A DNA stretch of 64,000 nucleotides from an uncultured bacterium (GTDB lineage Bacteria > Patescibacteriota > Minisyncoccia > Phycocordibacterales > UBA9973). The stretch spans positions 12,570 through 76,569 of the forward strand of contig CALCZP010000004.1 of assembly GCA_937903035.1 (NCBI GenBank). Direction: 5' to 3'. Numbering within the stretch: the first letter of the stretch is position 1; each line of letters starts with the position of its first letter. The notes under the pieces were generated by a model that was not told the origin of the DNA, ran no database searches, and worked only from the letters and a program-made list of their open reading frames with translations. This document shows positions 1 to 49,152 of this stretch, one piece after another. The position numbers and the translations under genes were made by a program.

Positions 1-221
1 TTCTCTTTAATAAGAGTAAGTAGTTGGCTTTCACTCATGTCATTTACCAAAGCGACACCTTCAGAAAGAGCACTGTCCATTTTCTTAAGAAATTCTTTAT
101 CATCTTTTCGCCAACGATAAACACTATTACGAGATAGTCCTGTTTTCTCACATGCAACTTGAACTATTGGCACCTTCCGAAGTTCATCAAGGAACTGATC
201 TTGAAATTTATTCTTTTTCAT
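1..221 (-). CDS. phBC6A51-like HTH / terminase small subunit-like protein (runs off window)
   Basis: Not in ORF track. Translated from ATG 221: MKKNKFQDQFLDELRKVPIVQVACEKTGLSRNSVYRWRKDDKEFLKKMDSAL; overlaps the methylase stop. Confidence 0.7.
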   Translation of the reverse strand, partial: MKKNKFQDQFLDELRKVPIVQVACEKTGLSRNSVYRWRKDDKEFLKKMDSALSEGVALVNDMSESQLLTLIKE

Positions 222-1485
222 AGAAGTTCTTGATTACCTGTGCTTTGCGACCAGTTAATTTTTCGTATCTGCGAATTGCCAAATCGCAGAACACAGGTTC
301 TATCTCTAGGGAATAGACCTTTCGCCCAAGTTGTTCTGCACAGATCATGGTGCTTGCGGATCCAGAGAAGGCGTCAAAAATAATGTCTCCTGGTTTGGTG
401 CAACGCATAATAAACTTATGGTGGAGTTCAGGATTTTTACTTGTTGCATGCTCCATTTGATTTGCAGGAAGTCGTTTTGTCGCCCAGATATTTGAGATAT
501 CTTCTAGAAGCTGATTGCCAGTTCCGTAGTCTTTGTTTTGTACTTCGTTGAGATTTTTTACGAGATCAGAAATATATGGAGACCCTTTTGTGCCATACAC
601 GCAATACTCGAGGCACTTATTGAACGCCACGGTAGGTGTCGGCGATGAATTGTTTTTGATCCAGACATTGAGCCGTCTATTCTTAACTTCATGCTCCATA
701 TAGAGTGTTTGAAATACCCACACCCACGCTTCATCGCACCAGAAAGCGACGTGTACGTCCTTAGTAGATACAGCTAGTGAAGACTTAAGAACTTTGCGAA
801 TAAATTCTTTGTATTCTTCAGGTGATTGGTTGTCGTCAAATGTGCCACCATAGTTGGATTTATTGCCAACCCCTTTGTCATATGAAAGTCCGATATTAAA
901 GGGTGGGTCATTATATATAGCGGTAGCTTTATCATCGCCAAATAGTTTTTTAACGGCATTTATATCGGTTGAACTAGCACATAATAATTTGTGACCACCC
1001 ATGACAATCAGATCACCAGGTTTTGTTTGTGGTGTTTTGATTTTCTTTAATTCTTTCTCAACATCGAATTTATCGTCTTTAGTATCTTTTTCTTCGTCCC
1101 AAAACTTAACCAATTCTTTTTCGTTGAATCCAGCGAACTGTAAAAGCTCTAGATCAAATGACTTGAGCTTTTCAAAATCCCATTCGCCGTCGTTAATATT
1201 GCTTTCGATCGCAATCTTGCGACGTTCTTCGTCAGTCAATTTACGATCAGGAATCAACACATTTACTTGCTTAATACCGAGCTGTATCAAAGCAGTTTTT
1301 CTTTGATTACCTGAAATAATCGTATTGTCTGTATCAATAACGATTACACTATGAAAACCACTTTGAATGATCTTCTCTTTTAATTTTTCCATAGCGACCC
1401 GTGAGATTTTTCTTGGATTTTCTTTCCAAGGGAGCAGGTCTGTGACATCTCGAACTCCTGTTGTCCATGAAGGTTTTTTATTCAT
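208..1485 (-). CDS. ParB N-terminal domain + N4/N6 DNA methyltransferase
   Basis: N-terminal ENPRKI/IISGNQR ParB-like region; NDPPF catalytic motif; HATSKN; DAFSGSAST SAM-binding motif. Confidence 0.9.
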   Translation of the reverse strand: MNKKPSWTTGVRDVTDLLPWKENPRKISRVAMEKLKEKIIQSGFHSVIVIDTDNTIISGNQRKTALIQLGIKQVNVLIPDRKLTDEERRKIAIESNINDGEWDFEKLKSFDLELLQFAGFNEKELVKFWDEEKDTKDDKFDVEKELKKIKTPQTKPGDLIVMGGHKLLCASSTDINAVKKLFGDDKATAIYNDPPFNIGLSYDKGVGNKSNYGGTFDDNQSPEEYKEFIRKVLKSSLAVSTKDVHVAFWCDEAWVWVFQTLYMEHEVKNRRLNVWIKNNSSPTPTVAFNKCLEYCVYGTKGSPYISDLVKNLNEVQNKDYGTGNQLLEDISNIWATKRLPANQMEHATSKNPELHHKFIMRCTKPGDIIFDAFSGSASTMICAEQLGRKVYSLEIEPVFCDLAIRRYEKLTGRKAQVIKNFYEKE

Positions 1486-1659
1486 AGAGTTTTTATTTAA
1501 TTACTTATAAATTTGTAGATGACTAATCTACTAACTCCATGAAATCAAAAAGGTACATAGTCATGTAATCACCACAAAATTGAGTAGTATAAAGAAAAAA
1601 CGCCTATTTAAAGGCGATTTTTCAAAGTTATCCACTCAACTTGGTGTCAACTTAGGAAT

Positions 1660-2292
1660 TTATTCTTTTTCTATGTGGATTTTTGGATTGATACGATACC
1701 CAGATCCTTTCTTTCCTTGAATGAGTTTCGTCTTCTTAGGAAGTCTTAGAGTGTTTATTGCGTAATCATTAAAAGTCTGAACCATTTTTGCTACCGCTTG
1801 TGATGAGGGGCAAGAGAGTATTCTTTGTAAGTCTTTTGTTTGTATATATGCATCTCGGTCAAGTAATGTTTCAAGTAATTTCTTTCTTTTTCCATTTTCA
1901 GTAAGGTCATATGAAAATAGTTTGCCGCCTAAATGTCTATCGAGCGATCCGTTATCTCTGTCGTAGATAATCACGTTACTATCTTGGCTTGAAGATAGAA
2001 GTCGCTTGTGATTTTTATTCAACTCCTGAAGTTCTTCTAAGATGTCATATTCAACAGGGCGACGATATACTATGGCTGGATATTCTACTGGCTCAAAAAG
2101 TTTTGCTTGTTCGCGAACGCGATTCATTTGTTCAATAATTGGTTGTGCAACTTTTTTGATATTTTCAATCATTTCAGCATGTCTTTTACCAATCTCTTGA
2201 AATTGAGAAATCTGCCCCTCACTTAAAGTAGGGGGATGTATTTTTGCCACCAGTTCACCAACAGTCATTGGTTTTTTCTGCTCGTCTGCCAT
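1660..2292 (-). CDS. Hypothetical protein with C-terminal winged-helix (OmpR-like) domain
   Basis: C-terminal LIQGKKGSGYRIN wing motif; divergent from lexA. Confidence 0.6.
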   Translation of the reverse strand: MADEQKKPMTVGELVAKIHPPTLSEGQISQFQEIGKRHAEMIENIKKVAQPIIEQMNRVREQAKLFEPVEYPAIVYRRPVEYDILEELQELNKNHKRLLSSSQDSNVIIYDRDNGSLDRHLGGKLFSYDLTENGKRKKLLETLLDRDAYIQTKDLQRILSCPSSQAVAKMVQTFNDYAINTLRLPKKTKLIQGKKGSGYRINPKIHIEKE

Positions 2293-2298
2293 GTAGTT

Positions 2299-2350
2299 AT
2301 GATAGCAAATACTTGCTTTTTTGTATAGAGTAATTTATACTATTTATACC
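2299..2350. promoter_or_regulatory. Divergent promoters with candidate LexA operator palindromes
   Basis: TTGCTT(2313)-N17-TATACT(2336) before lexA; TATCAT 6 nt before the divergent ATG; palindromes AGCAA-N4-TTGCT (2304-2317) and GTATA-N8-TATAC (2323-2340). Confidence 0.55.
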
Positions 2351-2968
2351 ATGACAAATAACCTAAGTGATAAAGATAAAAAAGCGTTTGCCCTTATCCG
2401 TAACAAGATTGTTCATTATGGCAAAAGTCCTACACTTAGTGAGATTAACGAGGTTACAGGTGGAGCTTCTCCACGATCTGCAAGCCTAGTAATTAATCGA
2501 CTAATCGATGCAGGACTTATAAAGAAAATCGGGCGACAACTTATCCTTACTGGATCACAGACAACAGCTTCAATAAGCACAGTTGATGTTCCGTTGGTTG
2601 GTGCTGTGACTTGTGGTGCTCCTGTTCTTGCCGAAGAAAATATTCAAGCACTAATTCCTGTCTCAACAGGTTTAGCAAAGAAAGGATCGAAATATTTTCT
2701 TTTGCGTGCTATGGGTGACTCGATGAATCTTGCGGGTATTAATAGTGGAGATCTGCTTTTGATTCGACAGCAAGATACAGCAGAAGATAATGAAAAAGTT
2801 GTTGCTCTTATAAATGACGAAGCAACCGTCAAAGTGTTCAAGAAAGCGAATGGTGCCGTTGTACTTCAACCGAAATCAACAAACAAAAACCACAAGCCGA
2901 TTATATTAACAGATAACTGCATCATACAAGGAGTAGTCGTTGCTGTACTTCCTGGTGATCTATATTAA
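2351..2968 (+). CDS. lexA: LexA-family repressor (S24 peptidase)
   Basis: wHTH SPTLSEI; VPLVGAVTCG-AP cleavage site; GDSM serine; TVKVF lysine; ATG 2351 follows the promoter. Confidence 0.9.
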   Translation: MTNNLSDKDKKAFALIRNKIVHYGKSPTLSEINEVTGGASPRSASLVINRLIDAGLIKKIGRQLILTGSQTTASISTVDVPLVGAVTCGAPVLAEENIQALIPVSTGLAKKGSKYFLLRAMGDSMNLAGINSGDLLLIRQQDTAEDNEKVVALINDEATVKVFKKANGAVVLQPKSTNKNHKPIILTDNCIIQGVVVAVLPGDLY

Positions 2969-2972
2969 AAAT

Positions 2973-3200
2973 ATGGCAAAAAATATTCACACTGTTTACA
3001 ACTCAGAGCGTGGGATGTGGGAAAATAAAAAAGAAGGCTCTTCTTCTCCTGTTTCTTCGCACCACACAAAAGAAAATGCTCTTGATAGAGCAGAAAATAT
3101 TGCTGAAAAAGCAAAGGTCGAACATTTTATTCATGGTAAAGACGGAAAAATCCAGGAGCGTAACAGCTATGGAAACGATCCTTTCCCACCACGGGGTTAA
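2973..3200 (+). CDS. DUF2188 domain protein
   Basis: HHTKENA...FIHGKDGKIQERNSYGNDPFPPRG, the typical DUF2188 C-terminus. Confidence 0.85.
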   Translation: MAKNIHTVYNSERGMWENKKEGSSSPVSSHHTKENALDRAENIAEKAKVEHFIHGKDGKIQERNSYGNDPFPPRG

Positions 3201-3206
3201 AACACT

Positions 3207-4130
3207 ATGGCTATTCCGCTTTCTCAACTGACAACATGGTCAAATCAGGGTGCTACTGTTTCAGCAAAAACAACACACGAATCTATTCGGACGGCACTAA
3301 CACACGATCAATCTCCACTTAAAGATCGTATCAGTAACGGCTCGGTAAAAATCTATCTCCAAGGATCGTATAAAAATGATACAAACATTCGAGCAGATAG
3401 CGATGTGGATGTAGTTGTCGAACTAACAACCACATTTGGTCATAATGCACACGAACTTCCTTATGATCAGAAAAATGCTCATGATCAGGCATACAGTAGT
3501 GCTGTTTATGATTGGCAAGATTTACGCAGAGATGTTATCTCTGCTCTGACTAAATATTACGGACTACTATCTGTTGATACAAGTGGTAATAAGTCAATTA
3601 AACTCAAACCTTCTTCAGGAAGGCTAAAGGCTGATATTGTTCCTGTTATAAATTATCGAAAATATGATTATTTTTATGGTACCACTAGCCATAATGCAGA
3701 AGAGGGTGTGAAGTTTTATCATCGCACAACAAATCGCGGAATTATAAATTATCCAGAGCACCACTATCAAAATGGAGTTAATAAAAATTCAGATACTCGT
3801 ACAGGTGGGCGTTTTAAACCAACAGTACGAATTTTCAAGAATATGAGAAACCATCTTGTTGATACAGGTAAACTTGCCGACGGTGTAGCACCATCATATT
3901 TCTTGCAGTCATTAGTTTATAATGTCCCTGATGAGCACTTCAATGGTGATAATTCCACAACCGTGCACGCCGTATTAAAACATCTCTGGTCTGCATTACC
4001 TTTGGGACAATGTGTGTGTCAAAACCATTTTCATGAATTATTTGGTGAAAGCGAGGAGCAATGGAATCAAGATGATGCGGTAAAAACTATTAGTGCTTTT
4101 GTAGAGCTTTGGGATAACTGGAATCAATAA
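3207..4130 (+). CDS. cdnE: CBASS cyclic dinucleotide synthase, CdnE-like CD-NTase
   Basis: QGSYKNDTNIRADSDVDVVV, ADIVP, IINYPEHHYQNG, APSYFLQSLVYNVPD; colinear with Rhodothermus marinus CdnE as recalled. Confidence 0.92.
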   Translation: MAIPLSQLTTWSNQGATVSAKTTHESIRTALTHDQSPLKDRISNGSVKIYLQGSYKNDTNIRADSDVDVVVELTTTFGHNAHELPYDQKNAHDQAYSSAVYDWQDLRRDVISALTKYYGLLSVDTSGNKSIKLKPSSGRLKADIVPVINYRKYDYFYGTTSHNAEEGVKFYHRTTNRGIINYPEHHYQNGVNKNSDTRTGGRFKPTVRIFKNMRNHLVDTGKLADGVAPSYFLQSLVYNVPDEHFNGDNSTTVHAVLKHLWSALPLGQCVCQNHFHELFGESEEQWNQDDAVKTISAFVELWDNWNQ

Positions 4131-4132
4131 TT

Positions 4133-4732
4133 ATGCAAAATATACACCCATATTCAATAAATTCTGAAGAACACAAGTATGTATCGCTCTACCTTGCGGT
4201 ATTATCCATATTACTTGCTTGGGGTTTATATCTTTTCTCAAAAAATGTCTTTGTGCTTCCGTGGTGGATTGAGGCTCCTTCGGTGATTGGTTTTTACGGA
4301 ATTTTACATAAGTGGTTCGAGACTAAGTTATGGAGAAATAATTTTATTCGTAAAATTACTAGTATAAAAACTCCTATCGTAGATGGAAATTGGTCTGGAA
4401 CCATAACATCTCATTCAAATCATGCTAACGGTCCAATACAGATTAAGAAATTTTGTATTAAACAAACGTGGACTCATCTACTTATTTATCTAGAAACAGA
4501 AACATCCGAATCTTTCAGTTTTGAGGCATCAATGAATGTTGATGAGTTTGGAACGGCTCGAATACATTATCAATACAGAAACAAACCAAAAGATAATGCT
4601 CCCGAAAGTATGCACATACATGAAGGATCAGCATCTGCAAAACTAGAAGATGAAGGAACGCTTCAAACAGAGTATTACTCAGGTAGAGATCGTAACAATA
4701 CAGGCTCTTTTGAAGTTAAAAAGTTACAATAG
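4133..4732 (+). CDS. cap15: CBASS effector Cap15 (2TM + beta-barrel)
   Basis: Two N-terminal TM helices, then P-x-V-D-G-x-W-x-G, IKQTWT and MHIHEG in a beta-rich domain; 2 nt downstream of the CD-NTase. Confidence 0.88.
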   Translation: MQNIHPYSINSEEHKYVSLYLAVLSILLAWGLYLFSKNVFVLPWWIEAPSVIGFYGILHKWFETKLWRNNFIRKITSIKTPIVDGNWSGTITSHSNHANGPIQIKKFCIKQTWTHLLIYLETETSESFSFEASMNVDEFGTARIHYQYRNKPKDNAPESMHIHEGSASAKLEDEGTLQTEYYSGRDRNNTGSFEVKKLQ

Positions 4733-4781
4733 ATTGTAACTTTTATAGTCAATCCTGTGTCACTTTTGTCACTTTTTATCA

Positions 4782-4912
4782 CTCGACAAGGGTCGATCTG
4801 ATATAATTAGAAAAGCTAAAAAAGCTTTGTGGTGCAATGAATCCCAAGGTCGCACCACGACTAGGCTCACAAAGCAAAAAGCGCTTCGCAAGAGGCGCTT
4901 TTTGCTTTGTGA
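4782..4912 (+). repeat. Copy A of ~130-bp unit (site-74 bp-site-hairpin)
   Basis: CTCGACAAGGGTCG at 4782, CACGACTAGGCTCACAAA at 4856, then a long GCAA-loop hairpin; same layout as 6471-6601. Confidence 0.65.
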
Positions 4913-5056
4913 TTTTTTCAGCATATATGTTGAAAAAAGAATCGAACCGGGAAAGGGTCGGGAAACGGGAGTTTCCCGTGGAGGAAGGCAGGCGAAGCCG
5001 TTGGAAAACCGTGGGTTTCCAAAGTGTGAGATAATGAAATGTCCCCGTAGGGTCAC
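4863..5056 (+). other. Highly structured tRNA-associated palindromic element
   Basis: Serial hairpins (GCAA, GGGA and GAA loops), inverted tRNA T-arm GAATCGAACC, terminal tRNA-Glu-like 3' end. Confidence 0.55.
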
Positions 5057-5095
5057 TATTTAGAGAGCCCTCGAGAAGCGTCATAATAAATTACT

Positions 5096-5785
5096 ATGAA
5101 AAGACAAAACAACATACAAGCACAAATTAAAAGAGCCTCAGAAATTTTACCGAAAATCGAACAAGAATATAATAACTCTCTACACAAAAAAGAAGTTAGT
5201 GACGATTTAAAATTGGATATTCAAACTTTTTTAGGACACTTAAGATCTGCCTTAGATTACTTATCAAAGGATATAATTGAAAAATATTGTCCTAATGTAG
5301 ATAAATCATATTTCCCAATTAGGCATGACAAAAATTCTTTTATGAAAATGATGTCCGAATCTTATCCGGAGCTTATTTCACATTCTCCTGCTCTATACTC
5401 ATATCTGGAATCAATACAGCCATATACTAATTCGGATAACTCATGGCTAGCTCATTTCAATAAACTTAATAATGAAAACAAACATAACGATTTAGTTGAA
5501 CAAATACGAACAGAAACCGAGAGGGTTAATGTGGAGATTAATGGGGGTGGTAGTGTAAATTGGGACCCTTCGGCAGTTAGATTTAGTGGACCAGGTGTTT
5601 ATATAGGAGGAGTTCCTGTGGATTTTAATACTCAAATACCAGTACAATCAAATACTCAAACTGTAACTATCCAAACATGGATTGATTTCAAATTTAGTGA
5701 TATTGAAACTTCTGCCCTTCACTTACTAAAAGAGTCACTAAGCAAAATAAAAGATATAAACACTGAGATTGTTAAATTTCTATAA
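5096..5785 (+). CDS. Hypothetical protein, HEPN-like helical fold suspected
   Basis: LRSALDYL...YFPI...LNNENKH motif pattern; AT-rich cargo gene. Confidence 0.6.
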   Translation: MKRQNNIQAQIKRASEILPKIEQEYNNSLHKKEVSDDLKLDIQTFLGHLRSALDYLSKDIIEKYCPNVDKSYFPIRHDKNSFMKMMSESYPELISHSPALYSYLESIQPYTNSDNSWLAHFNKLNNENKHNDLVEQIRTETERVNVEINGGGSVNWDPSAVRFSGPGVYIGGVPVDFNTQIPVQSNTQTVTIQTWIDFKFSDIETSALHLLKESLSKIKDINTEIVKFL

Positions 5786-5802
5786 TTATTGGAAATAATA
5801 TT

Positions 5803-6468
5803 ATGATTGGCGCAATATTAAAACTTTCATATAACCAAATTGGAGAAAATACTATTATTGGGGGTATATGTGGGACGTGTTTTGCTATTGATAGACATAG
5901 GTTACTAACAGCTGAACATATTATTTCTAAAAATAGTTTTACACCGGACAATGGCTTTGAGAAAGTGCGGTACTGGGCATTACTTGAGTCTGGTCAAAAT
6001 ATTGAGATATATAAAAATAACATAGAAAGTAAAAGAGAAAAAGATCTTAGTATTATAAAAACATCTAAATGGATAAATGGTAAAGTTCTAAAAGTAATAA
6101 ATTCTGAGACAAATATTAACTCAACATGTGGGAATTATGGATACACAGCAAGAACAATGCCTGACATAGATGGTGCTTGGAGTAAAAGAAAATTCAATAT
6201 TAAGTTCCATTCTTTACAAGAAAACAGAATTCATTCAAGCGGTTATGTTAAATCAATAAAAAATGCAGAAGTTAATACTAATGATTTAAATTTAAAATCA
6301 AGAATCCTAGAACTTAGTTATGGCGGTCGAGAAGGTATGTCGGGCGGCTGTTTACAAAATGAAAATAATGAAATAATTGGTTTGATGTCATTTGGGTTAC
6401 CTCCAGATCAAGCAGTAAAAAATATTCTATTCGCAGTTGATATAAGAGAAATTATAAATTATTTATAG
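5803..6468 (+). CDS. Trypsin-like serine protease, no signal peptide
   Basis: GTCFAI..LLTAEH (His), DLSII (Asp), GMSGG (Ser). Confidence 0.85.
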   Translation: MIGAILKLSYNQIGENTIIGGICGTCFAIDRHRLLTAEHIISKNSFTPDNGFEKVRYWALLESGQNIEIYKNNIESKREKDLSIIKTSKWINGKVLKVINSETNINSTCGNYGYTARTMPDIDGAWSKRKFNIKFHSLQENRIHSSGYVKSIKNAEVNTNDLNLKSRILELSYGGREGMSGGCLQNENNEIIGLMSFGLPPDQAVKNILFAVDIREIINYL

Positions 6469-6470
6469 CG

Positions 6471-6601
6471 CTCGAGAAGGGTCGAAGTGCAATACTAAAA
6501 AGCACCAGTAAACCTTACGGGGTAAAGTAACACTTGGTTCTATCTCGAGAAGGCTCACAAATACAAAACACCTCTTACGAGGTGTTTTGTATTTGTGAGC
6601 C
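6471..6601 (+). repeat. Copy B of ~130-bp unit (site-73 bp-site-hairpin)
   Basis: CTCGAGAAGGGTCG at 6471, CTCGAGAAGGCTCACAAA at 6544, perfect hairpin GGCTCACAAATACAAAACACCTC-TTAC-GAGGTGTTTTGTATTTGTGAGCC. Confidence 0.65.
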
Positions 6602-6632
6602 GGAGGGTAGTGTACAAAATAATTACTTAAGA

Positions 6633-7280
6633 TTAATTACTATATTTAATCTGCTGGTACTCTGCCATTAATGCATTATAAATATCTGTATATTTACTAT
6701 AAATATCATTTAATTCAGCATTTCGTTGTTCTATTGTTGAAATACCTGGAGCACTTTTCACAGCTGCCGAATCCTTTGCATATTTTGCATTAAGATTAGC
6801 AATCTGTAGATTTATAGCATCAAGCTTTTTTTGTTTATCAGCTATTTTTGCGTTTATAACATCTTGTTCTCTTTGTGCTTGTTTTTTTACAGTTTCTGCA
6901 TCCTTTAGCGCTTTTAATTCGATCAACCTATCTTCTTCTGTCTTAATCGAAGCAGCTCTCGCCAATTCATCTACTGTTTGTTTAACAACTAAGGCGTCGC
7001 TATCTTTTGCTTTAGATGTTACTTTTGTTTGTGCCTTAATAGCTGCTGAATTATCAACTTGAGAAGCAGTAAGAGATTCAGCGACCGGAGCAACTGAAGT
7101 ATTTTTAAGCGTTTTTTCAAGTTCATTAATTCTATTGTTTAACTCCTGTGTTTTAACATCTATTTTTGGAGTAAACGTCCAGTTATTGAACCATGTTTTT
7201 GGTTGCCACCAAGCAGCGTTTGTAACCGTAGGAAATGCTAAAAAAAATCCTAGAAATAATAGTGAAATTAATTTTTTCAT
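6633..7280 (-). CDS. Secreted coiled-coil protein
   Basis: Sec signal peptide ending TNA-AWWQPKTW; heptad-rich C-terminus. Confidence 0.7.
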   Translation of the reverse strand: MKKLISLLFLGFFLAFPTVTNAAWWQPKTWFNNWTFTPKIDVKTQELNNRINELEKTLKNTSVAPVAESLTASQVDNSAAIKAQTKVTSKAKDSDALVVKQTVDELARAASIKTEEDRLIELKALKDAETVKKQAQREQDVINAKIADKQKKLDAINLQIANLNAKYAKDSAAVKSAPGISTIEQRNAELNDIYSKYTDIYNALMAEYQQIKYSN

Positions 7281-8366: not shown

Positions 8367-9383
8367 TTATAATGCTTTTTCGATTTCAATAAGCTTTTTA
8401 ACTCCATTGTAGAGCTGCTCATAAATCTCACGCTCAGTCACTCCTAAGCGACGTTTATTTGAGATATCATAGATACCATCTGATGATTCAGAATGTTCTC
8501 CATGTACACCACGGATTGATAATCCGAGTGTGCCACAAATTGCTTTGAAATTTTGACTGTTTGAAAACTTTGGAATCCTAATATGTACTGATGCACGCAT
8601 TGCAGTTCCAAGGTTTGTCGGACAAGTCGTGTGATACCCACGAAGATCATCAAATGCAAAGTTGATTTTCTCATTGATAAAATTCAATGCTGTTGCCAAT
8701 CGGGTAAACACTTCAGCGATGTCAGCTCCTGGCTGCATACTTATGATACGCATACTGTCTTCTTCTGAAACCCAGACAAGGAATTTCTTGTCGTCAGAAA
8801 AGAAAATTCCACGATTCTTTGGCCAATCACGATTTACACCGGCACTTTCCAAGAAACGGTCGCCTTGCTTGAACAAAAAATGATCCTCAACCATTTTGGC
8901 ACGAACTTCTTCGCTCATACCATCAAGTGGAAAATACTCACCCTTAAGTGTTCCTGGGAGTTGTTTCAATGCTTCAATAATTTCGGATTCCATAGCAGCA
9001 CGATCTTCTGCTGAGATAGCAGAAGGAAAAGCATACTTTGCAAAATTACGACCAACACGAATACGGGTTGATACAACATAATTACCTTCAGGGTCTAAGT
9101 TTTCAACAGGAAGACCGGTGAGTGAGAAATCACTCTTATGCCCGCTCATATCATAATTATGATACTCCTTGATAACAGGATCAAAAAGAGAGGCAAGTAT
9201 AGTATACGATTCAGGATCTCCTGCATATACACCAATACTGGAGTCCTGGTTATCAATACCAGACTGAATTGCCTTTTGAAGAGTCCAGCCATGTGGTGTA
9301 ACAGCAGTAGCTAGCTGTTCTTGTACTTGTTCAGTACAATGCTTTTTCATTAACATGTCAGGGTTTTGTGTGTTTTTTGTCAT
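8367..9383 (-). CDS. Arginine kinase (ATP:guanido phosphotransferase with N-terminal domain)
   Basis: SGIDNQDSSIGVYAGDPESY, STRIRVGRN, FKQGDRFL, SEED, TCPTNLGT, RGVHGEHS, DISNKRRLG. Confidence 0.92.
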   Translation of the reverse strand: MTKNTQNPDMLMKKHCTEQVQEQLATAVTPHGWTLQKAIQSGIDNQDSSIGVYAGDPESYTILASLFDPVIKEYHNYDMSGHKSDFSLTGLPVENLDPEGNYVVSTRIRVGRNFAKYAFPSAISAEDRAAMESEIIEALKQLPGTLKGEYFPLDGMSEEVRAKMVEDHFLFKQGDRFLESAGVNRDWPKNRGIFFSDDKKFLVWVSEEDSMRIISMQPGADIAEVFTRLATALNFINEKINFAFDDLRGYHTTCPTNLGTAMRASVHIRIPKFSNSQNFKAICGTLGLSIRGVHGEHSESSDGIYDISNKRRLGVTEREIYEQLYNGVKKLIEIEKAL

Positions 9384-9854: not shown

Positions 9855-11321
9855 CTAGTCTTGGCGAGGCTTCAGAAGTGGAAAGATTTGTGATTCGCGT
9901 ACTGGCTTGTCGAGGAGGAATGAGAAGAGTCGCTCTGATACACCAAAGCCAAATGCTGGCGGCATACCATACTCCATCGCCTCGACATATTCCATATCTG
10001 CCATTTGTGCCTCATCATCCCCCGCATCACGGAGATCTTGCTGCTTCATAAAGCGCTCCTTTTGATCTACCGGATCATTGAGTTCACTAAAGCCTTTGCC
10101 GACTTCACTCCCCGCAATGATGACTTGGAAGCGTTCTACAGTCTGGGGGTTAGTACGATTTTTCTTTGCAAGTGGCTCGAGATAGACAGGAACGTTAACA
10201 AGGAATCCTGGACCACCGAGTGATTTGCGCACTTTTTTCCAGAGCAGATCCACTCCACGCTCAACAGAGATAGCTTTCTTGTCATACTCAATACCATGTT
10301 TGATAAGTGCAGCTTCGATTTCATCTACTGATGTCGCAAGTGCATCAATACCATAATGCTCCGCAATGATTGCGACAAAGTCATATGTCACCCAATCAGC
10401 ATTAAGGTCCACAGTAAATCCTTTGATGGTAAATGTTGTCGTACCAAACGTTTTTTCAGCGATTTCTCGATAGAGTCTCTTGATCATTTCCATTCCTTTC
10501 AAGTAGTCACTGTATGCCATATAGAACTCCATCTGTGTGTAGTCCTGGAGATGTTCGGCAGACATGCCTTCGTTGCGGAAAATGCGACCGATCTCAAAGG
10601 TGCGAGGAATACCTGCCACAAGGAGCTTCTTTTGCCAAAGCTCACCTGCTGAGATACGAAGGAAGACCTCCATATCAAGTGCATTATGATGTGTCACAAA
10701 TGGTCGAGCCTCTGCACCACCTGTTGTATTTTCAAGCACCGGTGTTTCAACTTCAACAAAGTCTTGTGCAAGCAAAAATGATCGCATCGTATTCCAAAAG
10801 ACTGAGCGCTTTTTCACCATCTCAGCCACATCAGCGTTTCCAAGAATATCGAGATATCGCTTGCGAAGCTTTTCTTCAGGATCTTCGATACCGTACCACC
10901 CATCAGGAATAGGACGCAGACTTTTCGCAAGCATATGCCAACTTTTTACAAACAAACTCTGTGCACCGCGTTGTGTCGTGTATGCAGTACCGATGACTTC
11001 GATAAAGTCTCCCGTATCAGCAGTATCAGTAAAGAGCGCATAGAGTGCACTATCCATCCCATCAGACTTAAATACGAGCTGTGTCTTTGCAGTTCCATCA
11101 AAGAGATCGACAAATGCGAGGGCACCTTGTCCACGTTTGGACATGATGCGACCAGCAAGCGTGATTTCATCCTTCCCTGCTTCGTATAAACTGAAACGAT
11201 CAATAAACGTCGCAACCGTATCAGTACGATGTGATGCGGCAGGATAGGACTCAATACCTTTTTCTTTGAGGAGCTCAATCTTTTTCAGTCGGTCGTTCCG
11301 GAGTTCTTCAATGGATGCCAT
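9855..11321 (-). CDS. lysS: Lysine--tRNA ligase (class II)
   Basis: GGAEARPFVTHHNAL, FRNEG, YGMPPAFGFG; start moved to ATG 11321 behind TACAAT. Confidence 0.96.
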   Translation of the reverse strand: MASIEELRNDRLKKIELLKEKGIESYPAASHRTDTVATFIDRFSLYEAGKDEITLAGRIMSKRGQGALAFVDLFDGTAKTQLVFKSDGMDSALYALFTDTADTGDFIEVIGTAYTTQRGAQSLFVKSWHMLAKSLRPIPDGWYGIEDPEEKLRKRYLDILGNADVAEMVKKRSVFWNTMRSFLLAQDFVEVETPVLENTTGGAEARPFVTHHNALDMEVFLRISAGELWQKKLLVAGIPRTFEIGRIFRNEGMSAEHLQDYTQMEFYMAYSDYLKGMEMIKRLYREIAEKTFGTTTFTIKGFTVDLNADWVTYDFVAIIAEHYGIDALATSVDEIEAALIKHGIEYDKKAISVERGVDLLWKKVRKSLGGPGFLVNVPVYLEPLAKKNRTNPQTVERFQVIIAGSEVGKGFSELNDPVDQKERFMKQQDLRDAGDDEAQMADMEYVEAMEYGMPPAFGFGVSERLFSFLLDKPVRESQIFPLLKPRQD

Positions 11322-48453: not shown

Positions 48454-48603
48454 AGGTATTTTAAATACTTAAATATCGTAATAGCCTACTCTTCAATTAT
48501 TCTTAAAAGGTAACTAGAATTAAGGTTCTAATTTTAGGTGTGAAATATCGACTTATCCTTATTTAGGAGTACTATTTATAAATATAAATAAGAATAAAAA
48601 CAT

Positions 48604-49002
48604 ATGAAAATTGATGAAAATATTGAAAAATTTATTTTATCTGCCGAATCAAAAGCACTTGCAACATATGGCACAAACATAAACGTTGTTCCTGTATCTT
48701 CAATAAGGATTGTGGAAGGGAAAATTTGGCTTATAAACTATTTTCTTGATAAAACACTAGCAAATATTCTTCTTAACCCCTCGGTTTCTCTTGTATGCTG
48801 GAAAAAAATGATGGGATATCAGATAAAAGGAAATGTTGAATATATAACAGATGGAGAATATTTTGATAATGCAACCTCATGGATAAAAGAACAGCTGCCA
48901 GATAGAGTAGTAAAAGGTTTGTTGATTTTAACACCAGAAGAGATATACGATATTGCTCCTACCAAAGATACTGCGGAAAAGTTTTTAAATGAACTATCCT
49001 AA
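48604..49002 (+). CDS. Pyridoxamine 5'-phosphate oxidase family (FMN split-barrel) protein
   Basis: LAT..NVVP, KTLANI..NP.VSL, GYQIKG. Confidence 0.82.
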   Translation: MKIDENIEKFILSAESKALATYGTNINVVPVSSIRIVEGKIWLINYFLDKTLANILLNPSVSLVCWKKMMGYQIKGNVEYITDGEYFDNATSWIKEQLPDRVVKGLLILTPEEIYDIAPTKDTAEKFLNELS

Positions 49003-49101
49003 AATGATGAGATATCGTAAATACAAAAGACACCTAAAATTAGATGTCTTTTGTTCTGGTTACCGCACTCAGCGGGTATGCAATTTCAGTATAGTATATC
49101 G

Positions 49102-49144
49102 AGCTAGCTCGAGAAGCGTTATTTCAACGCGTCTCGTGCTAGCT
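49102..49144. repeat. Imperfect palindrome containing the CTCGAGAAGCGT site
   Basis: 19-bp arms (17/19 match) around ATTTC. Confidence 0.75.
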
Positions 49145-49152
49145 GTCAATTG

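Follow-up and report, generated by a model that had tools for sequence, protein, structure and literature searches.

Does a short motif that recurs between the genes of an uncultured patescibacterium mark the points at which DNA was inserted at a tRNA locus and, if so, which kind of enzyme put it there? The question is raised by a 64,000-bp stretch of contig C4 of genome G000 (C4:12570-76569), which we refer to as the window and whose own numbering is used for all positions without a contig prefix. Five copies of a 14-bp motif lie here within 1.82 kb, at the end of a 17.4-kb element (E) and around a 1.5-kb two-gene cassette (K). In our reading, which we hold with considerable confidence, a large serine recombinase inserts units serially at nucleotides (nt) 71-72 of tRNA-Glu, and E and K stand in tandem as two such units. 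The architecture of the unit ends, its spread through the order, its match to tRNA, its covariation with the recombinase clade and the stacking of units are observed features of a whole family. A preliminary description of the window had proposed stacked att-type scars of repeated site-specific integration at a tRNA, and the end architecture, the tRNA match and the stacks support this proposal.

The motif copies are as that description gave them. All are on the forward strand; those at 5070 and 6471 are exact, those at 4782 and 6544 have one mismatch, and the one at 4856, already called degenerate, differs at 4 of 14 positions and is not among the matches at up to three mismatches. The pairs 4782/4856 and 6471/6544 are 74 and 73 bp apart, can be aligned with each other (59 of 92 columns) and are each followed by GGCTCACAAA and a long hairpin (4867-4912 and 6552-6601). 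The copies at 5070 and 6471 bracket the two genes of K closely, beginning 26 bp before the first ATG (5096) and 2 bp after the last stop codon (6468). Nor is the motif randomly distributed: allowing one mismatch, there are eight copies in the 645-kb genome where an order-3 Markov model predicts 0.78 (0.002 per 1.82 kb), seven of them at element ends and one apparently in a coding sequence. At up to three mismatches the count in the window is weakly above chance (21 against a mean of 11.2). Two features had been overlooked, namely a further copy at 49108 and an exact 15-nt copy of the tRNA-Glu 3' end at 5042-5056. The bare 14-mer was also tried as a marker of the family and discarded; it matched 33 of 201 genomes and is a poor marker because many of the 30 loci that were read sat within long open reading frames (ORFs).

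The ends of the units and the predicted position of the crossover

In order to define the family, a pattern consisting of a TGTCAC box and the motif was matched to GTDB genomes, which gave 84 loci. A second site follows 59-68 bp further on in 80 of them, a locus titled as Deltaproteobacteria being among the four without it. A sequence-only model of the right end was then run on the genomes of the genus and of the order and found matches in 23 of 51 and 50 of 151 genomes, respectively (G000 included). With 80 upstream regions fetched, the collection comprises 174 right ends in 148 loci, of which 160 are distinct.

A right end contains one copy of the motif (site 1) and closes with a 23-nt mimic of tRNA nt 52-74 (site 2). 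The distance from site 1 to the T-loop part of the mimic is 66 bp in 94 of 131 ends and 64-68 bp in 130. Comparison of the mimic with the nearest upstream tRNA on the same strand in 71 distinct pairs (Gln 27, Glu 21, Ser 17, Trp 4, Gly 1, Ile 1) shows an identity of 0.90-1.00 at nt 53-56 and 58 and of 0.96-0.97 at nt 71-74, and of at most 0.72 elsewhere. The dinucleotide at nt 71-72 equals that of the tRNA in 67 of the 71 pairs, compared with a mean of 23.1 and a maximum of 40 in 10,000 shuffles and with 11 of 54 for other tRNAs of the same loci; since kin are not independent of each other in this set, these figures are not probabilities. The identical core shared by mimic and tRNA has a median length of 5 bp (range 2-15 bp).

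The opposite ends are more variable. At loci that had been chosen for their right ends, a left-arm signature follows 27 of 83 Glu, Gln, Ser and Trp tRNA ends and none of 77 others. We defined a complete unit as the interval from a tRNA or a right end to the next right end of the same type and obtained 82 of them, some of which may contain other insertions. The left-arm motif lies at +16 from the crossover in 21 units, +17 in 4, +25 in 2 and +26 in 8. The symmetry of the arms amounts to 7.7 of 14 in these 35 units, as compared with 4.8 in downstream flanks that have no such motif.

The preliminary description had taken the 14-mer itself for the crossover and had predicted a 1,401-bp circle joining 5070 to 6471. 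This part has to be revised: the boundary falls at the dinucleotide that matches nt 71-72 of the tRNA, and for this reason the cassette would run from 5055 to 6556 and its circle would measure 1,502 bp, with 6556 joined to 5055. With predicted crossovers at TC 4867-4868, 5053-5054 and 6555-6556, the five copies fall by position into three roles, namely the distal motif of the right arm (4782 and 6471), the core half-site (4856 and 6544) and the motif of the left arm (5070).

The mimicry of tRNA invites the explanation that the conserved 120-bp end acts not as a DNA site but as RNA, either structured and non-coding or a tRNA-like transcript, as a -10-like hexamer precedes it and its terminus resembles tRNA. 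Alignment of 81 ends gave no consensus base pair in RNAalifold, Rfam returned no family at its gathering score in 4600-6800 (hairpin-level matches lie below it), and the spacing is fixed in base pairs, as it is for protein-binding sites. We consider an RNA very improbable and treat the ends as DNA sites because of the absence of consensus pairing in the 81-end alignment.

Integrons and CALINs, which are defined by IntI, attI and attC, are arrays of small co-oriented gene units in which the latest arrival adjoins a fixed position. A true integron or CALIN, in which a tyrosine recombinase acts on atypical attC sites in folded single-stranded form, would account for small co-oriented tandem cassettes of one to three genes, such as are found here, and for their mostly unassigned functions (75 of 118 small-cassette genes have no Pfam match at 1e-6). 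Furthermore, homologues of the first gene of K lie in other bacteria (L236, L238-L240) between repeats that we take, from their core motif, to be attC-like, so that both cassette systems seem to carry members of this gene family. Against this, G000 has no match to IntI (TIGR02249) over the curated cut-off, the attC cores GTTRRRY and RYYYAAC are absent from the junctions (4700-5100 and 6460-6660), consensus pairing is lacking as said, and the ends track tRNA identity and the serine-recombinase clade. We give this explanation next to no chance, and the earlier statement that the sites are not attC proves correct. What is found is what characterizes elements of large serine recombinases: a three-domain protein encoded inside the element and a very short core with inverted half-sites.

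The role of site 1 is less straightforward. It lies about 85 bp from the crossover, is near-palindromic and adjoins the -10-like hexamer, and genes for a LexA-type repressor and a ParB-methyltransferase are frequent upstream of it. The 14-mer at 4782, 5070 and 6471 might thus be an operator for the LexA-type repressor, the ParB domain or a small terminase, with the ends still being recombination sites. We regard this as unlikely, though by no means negligible: the core of site 1 covaries with the target type, the motif is repeated in the core half-site and at the position expected for the zinc-ribbon domain (+16), and site 1 is retained in units that have no LexA gene. More likely, the copies at 4782 and 6471 give the same recombinase an additional place to bind, next to a putative outward promoter. 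The hexamer has the form TGnTAnnnT, which 41 of 131 ends contain and which shuffles yield at 1.3%, and we infer that at 4799 it is an outward promoter that may drive the next cassette; a scan for -35/-10 pairs did not list this site. The operator-like box that precedes site 1 in E occurs in 90 of the 160 distinct right ends, a frequency owed partly to the selection by this box, and is absent from K.

Recombinases, target tRNAs and cargo

The left end of E (C4:54) directly follows a copy of the tRNA-Glu 3' end, and its recombinase gene ends 1.6 kb inside the element. The PDB matches of the protein are SPbeta YokA and TP901-1. Among the related loci, 41 recombinase ORFs of at least 380 aa were collected; four without a downstream right end were left out and the remaining 37 were placed in a quick tree without bootstrap, in which kin are again not independent. 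In 33 of the 37 the gene runs opposite to the direction of its element; five long-branch sequences fall outside the main group. All ten Glu-type recombinases share one branch (SH-aLRT 89; two are near-copies), and the target types of all groups require 6 changes on the tree compared with 17.4 after shuffling. The core of site 1 follows the same division: AAGG prevails among the Glu-type ends (47 of 52) and ACGC among those of Gln type (32 of 43) and of Ser/Trp type (26 of 31). Recombinase clade and motif core both track the target tRNA.

Within the Glu type, the left arm is at +26 in E, L107 and L198 (recombinases of 423-427 aa) and at +16 in L147 and L148 (439-440 aa). Cassette K has a +16 arm, and its site 2 is identical to that of L148, a Glu element with its own recombinase. 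Since the ends of K match L147 and L148 and not E, K would be moved in trans, most likely by a sister Glu-type recombinase, albeit on small numbers and as judged from the ends.

K, measured between the predicted crossovers, is a 1,502-bp recombinase-less cassette, and it has many counterparts. No match to a recombinase, terminase or ParB-methyltransferase is found in 63 of the 82 complete units, and the median length of these 63 is 1,521 bp. Such units could also be decayed remnants, or cargo left behind by imprecise excision, that are not independently mobile. Unit sizes form a continuum from 0.46 to 19 kb, and truncated recombinase or terminase pieces occur in L086, L129 and L149; K has no TGTCAC box and was not found near-identical in another context, its sole 100% match (L234) having the same neighbours; and Dehalococcoides islands without a module are discussed as either mobilisable in cis or fixed (PMC3146451). 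On the other hand, 50 of the 63 units are shorter than 2.5 kb, 66 of their 82 genes are co-oriented, many units have both arms intact, and K combines a canonical +16 left arm with a site 2 that a complete element has in identical form. Decay is a possible but doubtful explanation in our view, and we keep to that of cassettes mobilised by serine recombinases. Units are also stacked: 19 loci have two or three ends of the same type one behind the other.

The preliminary description spoke of a defence array, which is true of the large elements and fails for the small cassettes. In the 16 recombinase-bearing units scanned (E<=1e-25; four genes of L086 not included), 11 carry strong defence matches, comprising Shedu, Gabija, CBASS, restriction-modification (R-M) and PDC systems. 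The 57 core-less units shorter than 6 kb are not enriched for defence, as PADLOC (E<=1e-8) matches 11 of their 118 genes and 16 of 120 host-side control genes; four of the 11 matches are strong and nearly full length. A Pfam match (1e-6) was obtained for 43 of the 118 genes, and transporters and small enzymes make up most of these.

K may have a role in defence or as a toxin. The product of its first gene has 258 relatives and a confidently modelled helical bundle (pLDDT 91.6). The protein is possibly HEPN-like, but its fold ties between HEPN chains, with Z scores of 9.2 and 9.1 (root-mean-square deviation 2.9-3.2, 121-126 residues aligned), and a non-HEPN bundle, with a Z score of 9.7; Foldseek gave no match at E<=0.001, and a conserved NxNxxKH stands in place of the HEPN arginine motif (Rx4-6H). 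In seven other metagenome loci its homologues have neither family ends nor a protease neighbour.

Several further observations concern the elements themselves. As regards a phage satellite of the PICI kind, which would use packaging genes together with a helper phage, the terminase-domain match in E is weak. Its first reverse transcriptase (RT) was considered as a retron and dropped, the best PADLOC match being DRT UG17. A diversity-generating retroelement (DGR) RT, Avd and a 302-aa candidate target lie at C4:7912-10776. LOOT RNA (RF03000) reaches the cut-off in the recombinase-bearing L148 and L168 and remains below it in E and in the element on contig C3. The latter (C3:20182-26997, L137) is a complete 6.7-kb Ser-type element of G000 with a recombinase and ABC-transporter-like cargo; a weaker right end lies at C3:147214-147297 after tRNA-Ser(GCT). 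G000 has further large serine recombinases at C2:32332 by tRNA-Asn and C4:143167 by tRNA-Gln(CTG), where the right-end model finds no end.

A proposed model of serial insertion and the array locus

We propose the following mechanism. An incoming circle would present a right arm that mimics the T-loop of the tRNA at -19 to -11 from the crossover, which is the zinc-ribbon position of attB, and a left arm that restores A73 and often CCA (A73-CCA) and has the motif CWCGAGAMG at +16 to +24, the position of attP, or one helical turn further outward. In attP, the motif that serine integrases contact lies 16-24 bp from the crossover, and in attB it lies 11-19 bp away (PMC3783163). The junction of the circle would resemble a tRNA site already occupied by an element, so that each insertion would rebuild a usable site. 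The tRNA would stay intact and the same kind of site would be re-formed after integration. Because of this, later units would enter next to the tRNA and older ones would be pushed away, resulting in a newest-first order. The order in this locus would be K, a hairpin-rich mini-element, E, another mini-element and an unassembled unit. Alternatively, E and K may have entered the tRNA copy of the mini-element.

The coordinates are given in Table 1. Overlaps of 55 bp between contig ends order the assembly as C4, C1, C3, C2 and reverse C8, and its sole open join is that of tRNA-Glu(CTC) plus 125 bp with the start of C4. The GC contents of E, K and the host are 37%, 32% and 44%, respectively.

Table 1. 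Features of the array locus (window positions unless a contig is named)
Feature	Position	Strand	Remarks
Element E	C4:54-17437 (17,384 bp); window part 1..4868 (last 4,868 bp)	+	Left end at C4:54 follows a tRNA-Glu 3' copy
E genes in the window	1..4868		ParB-methyltransferase, LexA-type repressor, DUF2188, CBASS cyclase, Cap15
E genes outside the window			RT, large serine recombinase, Mod/Res-type R-M pair, DGR RT + Avd, terminase-like genes
Recombinase of E	C4:1661-2932	minus	Resolvase, Recombinase and Zn-ribbon domains
Operator-like box of E right end	4723..4777	+	Palindrome GTTACA-N6-TGTAAC 4723-4740; tandem TGTCACTTT repeats 4758-4777
Site 1 of E (distal right-arm motif)	4782..4795	+	66 bp before T-loop mimic
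Extended -10-like hexamer (TGATATAAT)	4799..4807	+	Points out of E; TGnTAnnnT enrichment
Site 2 of E	4848..4870	+	Mimics tRNA nt 52-74 over 23 nt; crossover predicted at TC 4867-4868; includes 4856 copy
Terminator-type hairpin	4867..4912	+	Directly 3' of tRNA-Glu in relative G009
Mini-element, hairpin-rich	4939..5056	+	3' end is the 15-nt tRNA-Glu 3' copy 5042-5056, TC 5053-5054
Left arm of K	5055..5083	+	Motif at 5070, +16 from crossover
K gene 1 (229 aa)	5096..5785	+	Helical-bundle protein, no Pfam family, conserved NxNxxKH
K gene 2 (221 aa)	5803..6468	+	Trypsin-like protease
Site 1 of K right end	6471..6484	+	
Site 2 of K	6536..6558	+	Predicted crossover TC 6555-6556; identical to L148 site 2; includes 6544 copy
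Long hairpin after K	6552..6601	+	Distal arm pairs back across the junction
Gln-type left arm	49108..49148	-	Directly after tRNA-Gln(TTG); 49108 copy is the inverted hairpin partner

The sequence between E and K (4871-5056) is a hairpin and the mini-element and is separate from the motif system. The hairpin at 4867-4912 appears, from its place in G009, to be displaced host-side sequence. The last 55 bp of the mini-element (5002-5056) are repeated at C4:1-55. Its kin of approximately 110-190 bp (L002-L010, L012, L013, L017, L018) are found after tRNAs Glu, Gly, His, Arg, Pro, Met, Phe and Thr, and also after the 3' end of a gene apparently encoding ribosomal protein S9; as a rule they repeat the adjoining gene end twice, once directly and once inverted. 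The hairpin after K pairs with the arm of the element (GGC) and not with tRNA-Glu sequence, possibly by chance; the notion that downstream hairpins generally copy the element arm was abandoned, as it applies to 2 of 14 hairpin junctions and extends over 3 bp. No right end was detected in the AT-rich stretch by tRNA-Gln(TTG) (window 48500-49151). Near the array, an ATP:guanido phosphotransferase (arginine-kinase-like) gene occupies 8367-9383, and an 86% identical copy of it is present in L163.

Other samples offer a view of the same locus. Contigs of four of 19 sequencing runs (X1, X4, X6 and X7; runs with a share below 0.2 were left out) were compared with C4:1-19800. In X1, the left flank of one contig is different, and the contig joins at C4:17436 (window position 4867), the predicted TC. 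A second, unassembled unit ends at this dinucleotide and probably fills the gap between tRNA-Glu and C4. In X4, X6 and X7, which come from three other studies, E is covered at 90-99% identity, from the recombinase almost as far as the right end, and the depth over K and the host beyond is zero; this fits E travelling as a unit. Clustered differences in the other runs lie near C4:9344-9521 and 9908-9992, in the DGR region. A single low-depth X4 contig (C4:3014-10898) leads straight from the recombinase region to the terminase gene and skips the block of R-M and DGR genes; it has 31 letters on its short side and may be from another organism.

A number of results speak against serial insertion by these recombinases, or weaken the case for it. 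The tRNA-Glu gene lies beyond a gap in the assembly, and what precedes E, and likewise K, is a copy of the tRNA 3' end and not the gene. X1 may be the source sample itself, and the other flank of its contig is not in the site-2 format of the family. The depths of E (29-36) and K (51), which give a hint that E is missing from some genomes, are not cell fractions. No circle or empty-site joint of E or K, whether of 1,401 or 1,502 bp for the latter, was found in the four contig sets, although contigs drop rare forms and a missing joint does not show absence; likewise, the synteny of lysS gave no empty site, as none of the 12 regions fetched has tRNA-Glu or a right end. Across the family, a recombinase match is present in 17 of the 82 complete units, the left-arm motif is recognisable in 35 of them, and 4 of the 71 pairs mismatch at the dinucleotide. 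In the quick tree with its related sequences, the Gln type needs 5 changes (12.6 when shuffled) and the Ser/Trp type 4 (7.4). Finally, in known integrases recombination of hybrid sites is blocked unless a directionality factor is present (PMC3783163), and such a factor was not identified for these elements.

Relation to known systems and significance

We have compared the system with its closest counterparts. Staphylococcal cassette chromosomes (SCC/SCCmec) with CcrAB or CcrC share the large serine recombinase, an unvarying target where an essential gene ends (3') and tandem cassettes between att repeats; Ccr also acts on neighbouring cassettes, and there is defence cargo, as here (PMC11470126). 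The target here is nt 71-72 of several tRNAs and not rlmH, there is one recombinase gene per element, and units are as small as 0.5-2.5 kb with one to three genes, their mobility being predicted, whereas SCC cassettes measure about 17-48 kb (PMC11470126). The ssrA islands of Dehalococcoides (DsiB) have a serine integrase on the reverse strand and genes with a ParB domain and for a methylase, and stand in tandem behind an RNA gene; many of them (15) lack the module, likewise as here (PMC3146451). They differ in a 20-bp direct repeat of ssrA and in an integrase gene overlapping attL, whereas here the median core is 5 bp and the recombinase gene of E ends 1.6 kb from the left junction.

The phage serine integrases (LI/A118, phiC31, Bxb1) have the same three-domain protein, central dinucleotide, inverted half-sites and motif at 16-24 or 11-19 (PMC3783163). 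In contrast to theirs, the junction of the element itself seems to join a left half of attB type to a right half of attP type; conservation is lacking in the right half of the target, and a further motif is found at a distance of about 85 bp. The tycheposons of Prochlorococcus resemble the family in their tRNA-specific integrase clades, serial insertion by tRNA, cargo and terminase forms, but 910 of 937 have tyrosine recombinases (serine enzymes being the minority), with partial tRNA copies of about 40 nt and, in many, replication genes (10.1101/2020.12.28.424599). No 40-nt copy is found here, the identical core being 2-15 bp, and the 15 nt copied at 5042-5056 are part of the mini-element.

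With respect to integrons, the kinds of cargo overlap, but a serine recombinase and a tRNA target take the place of IntI, attC cores and a folded site. By analogy, the system would work like SCC/Ccr and the ssrA islands of Dehalococcoides; it is not an integron.

A more far-reaching idea, which we put forward tentatively, is that of a serine-recombinase equivalent of the integron in Patescibacteria. Single-gene cassettes would be added, removed and reordered in trans in a non-directional manner, as every junction (the tRNA target, both ends and the circle) would have the same hybrid form and cassettes could therefore be moved without a fixed direction. Reading of the universal T-loop and the dinucleotide would allow hopping between tRNAs, and the large terminase-bearing elements would be the vehicle.

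How such arrays may have gone unnoticed can be seen from the Islander study of 2014, which restricted itself to tyrosine integrases and stated that tRNAs were not known as targets of serine integrases; it also used a 7-nt seed word and dropped islands below 2 kb (PMC4383910). A scar of about 5 bp falls below this word, and this, together with the size and integrase filters, may explain the oversight. Patescibacteria are not mentioned in the passages of two later island papers, and our search, which lay outside subscription journals and supplements, found no paper on this system; large tables of recombinases or islands may list the enzymes.

The class of mechanism is already known from SCC and the DsiB islands. 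Yet how the tiny genomes of Patescibacteria gain defence and accessory genes is poorly mapped, and the array gives a precise route: the enzymes can be named, the crossover spans two bases, and the target tRNA can be predicted from the arm motifs. Single-protein serine recombinases for conserved tRNA ends, which leave the tRNA intact, are also a candidate tool for uncultured hosts.

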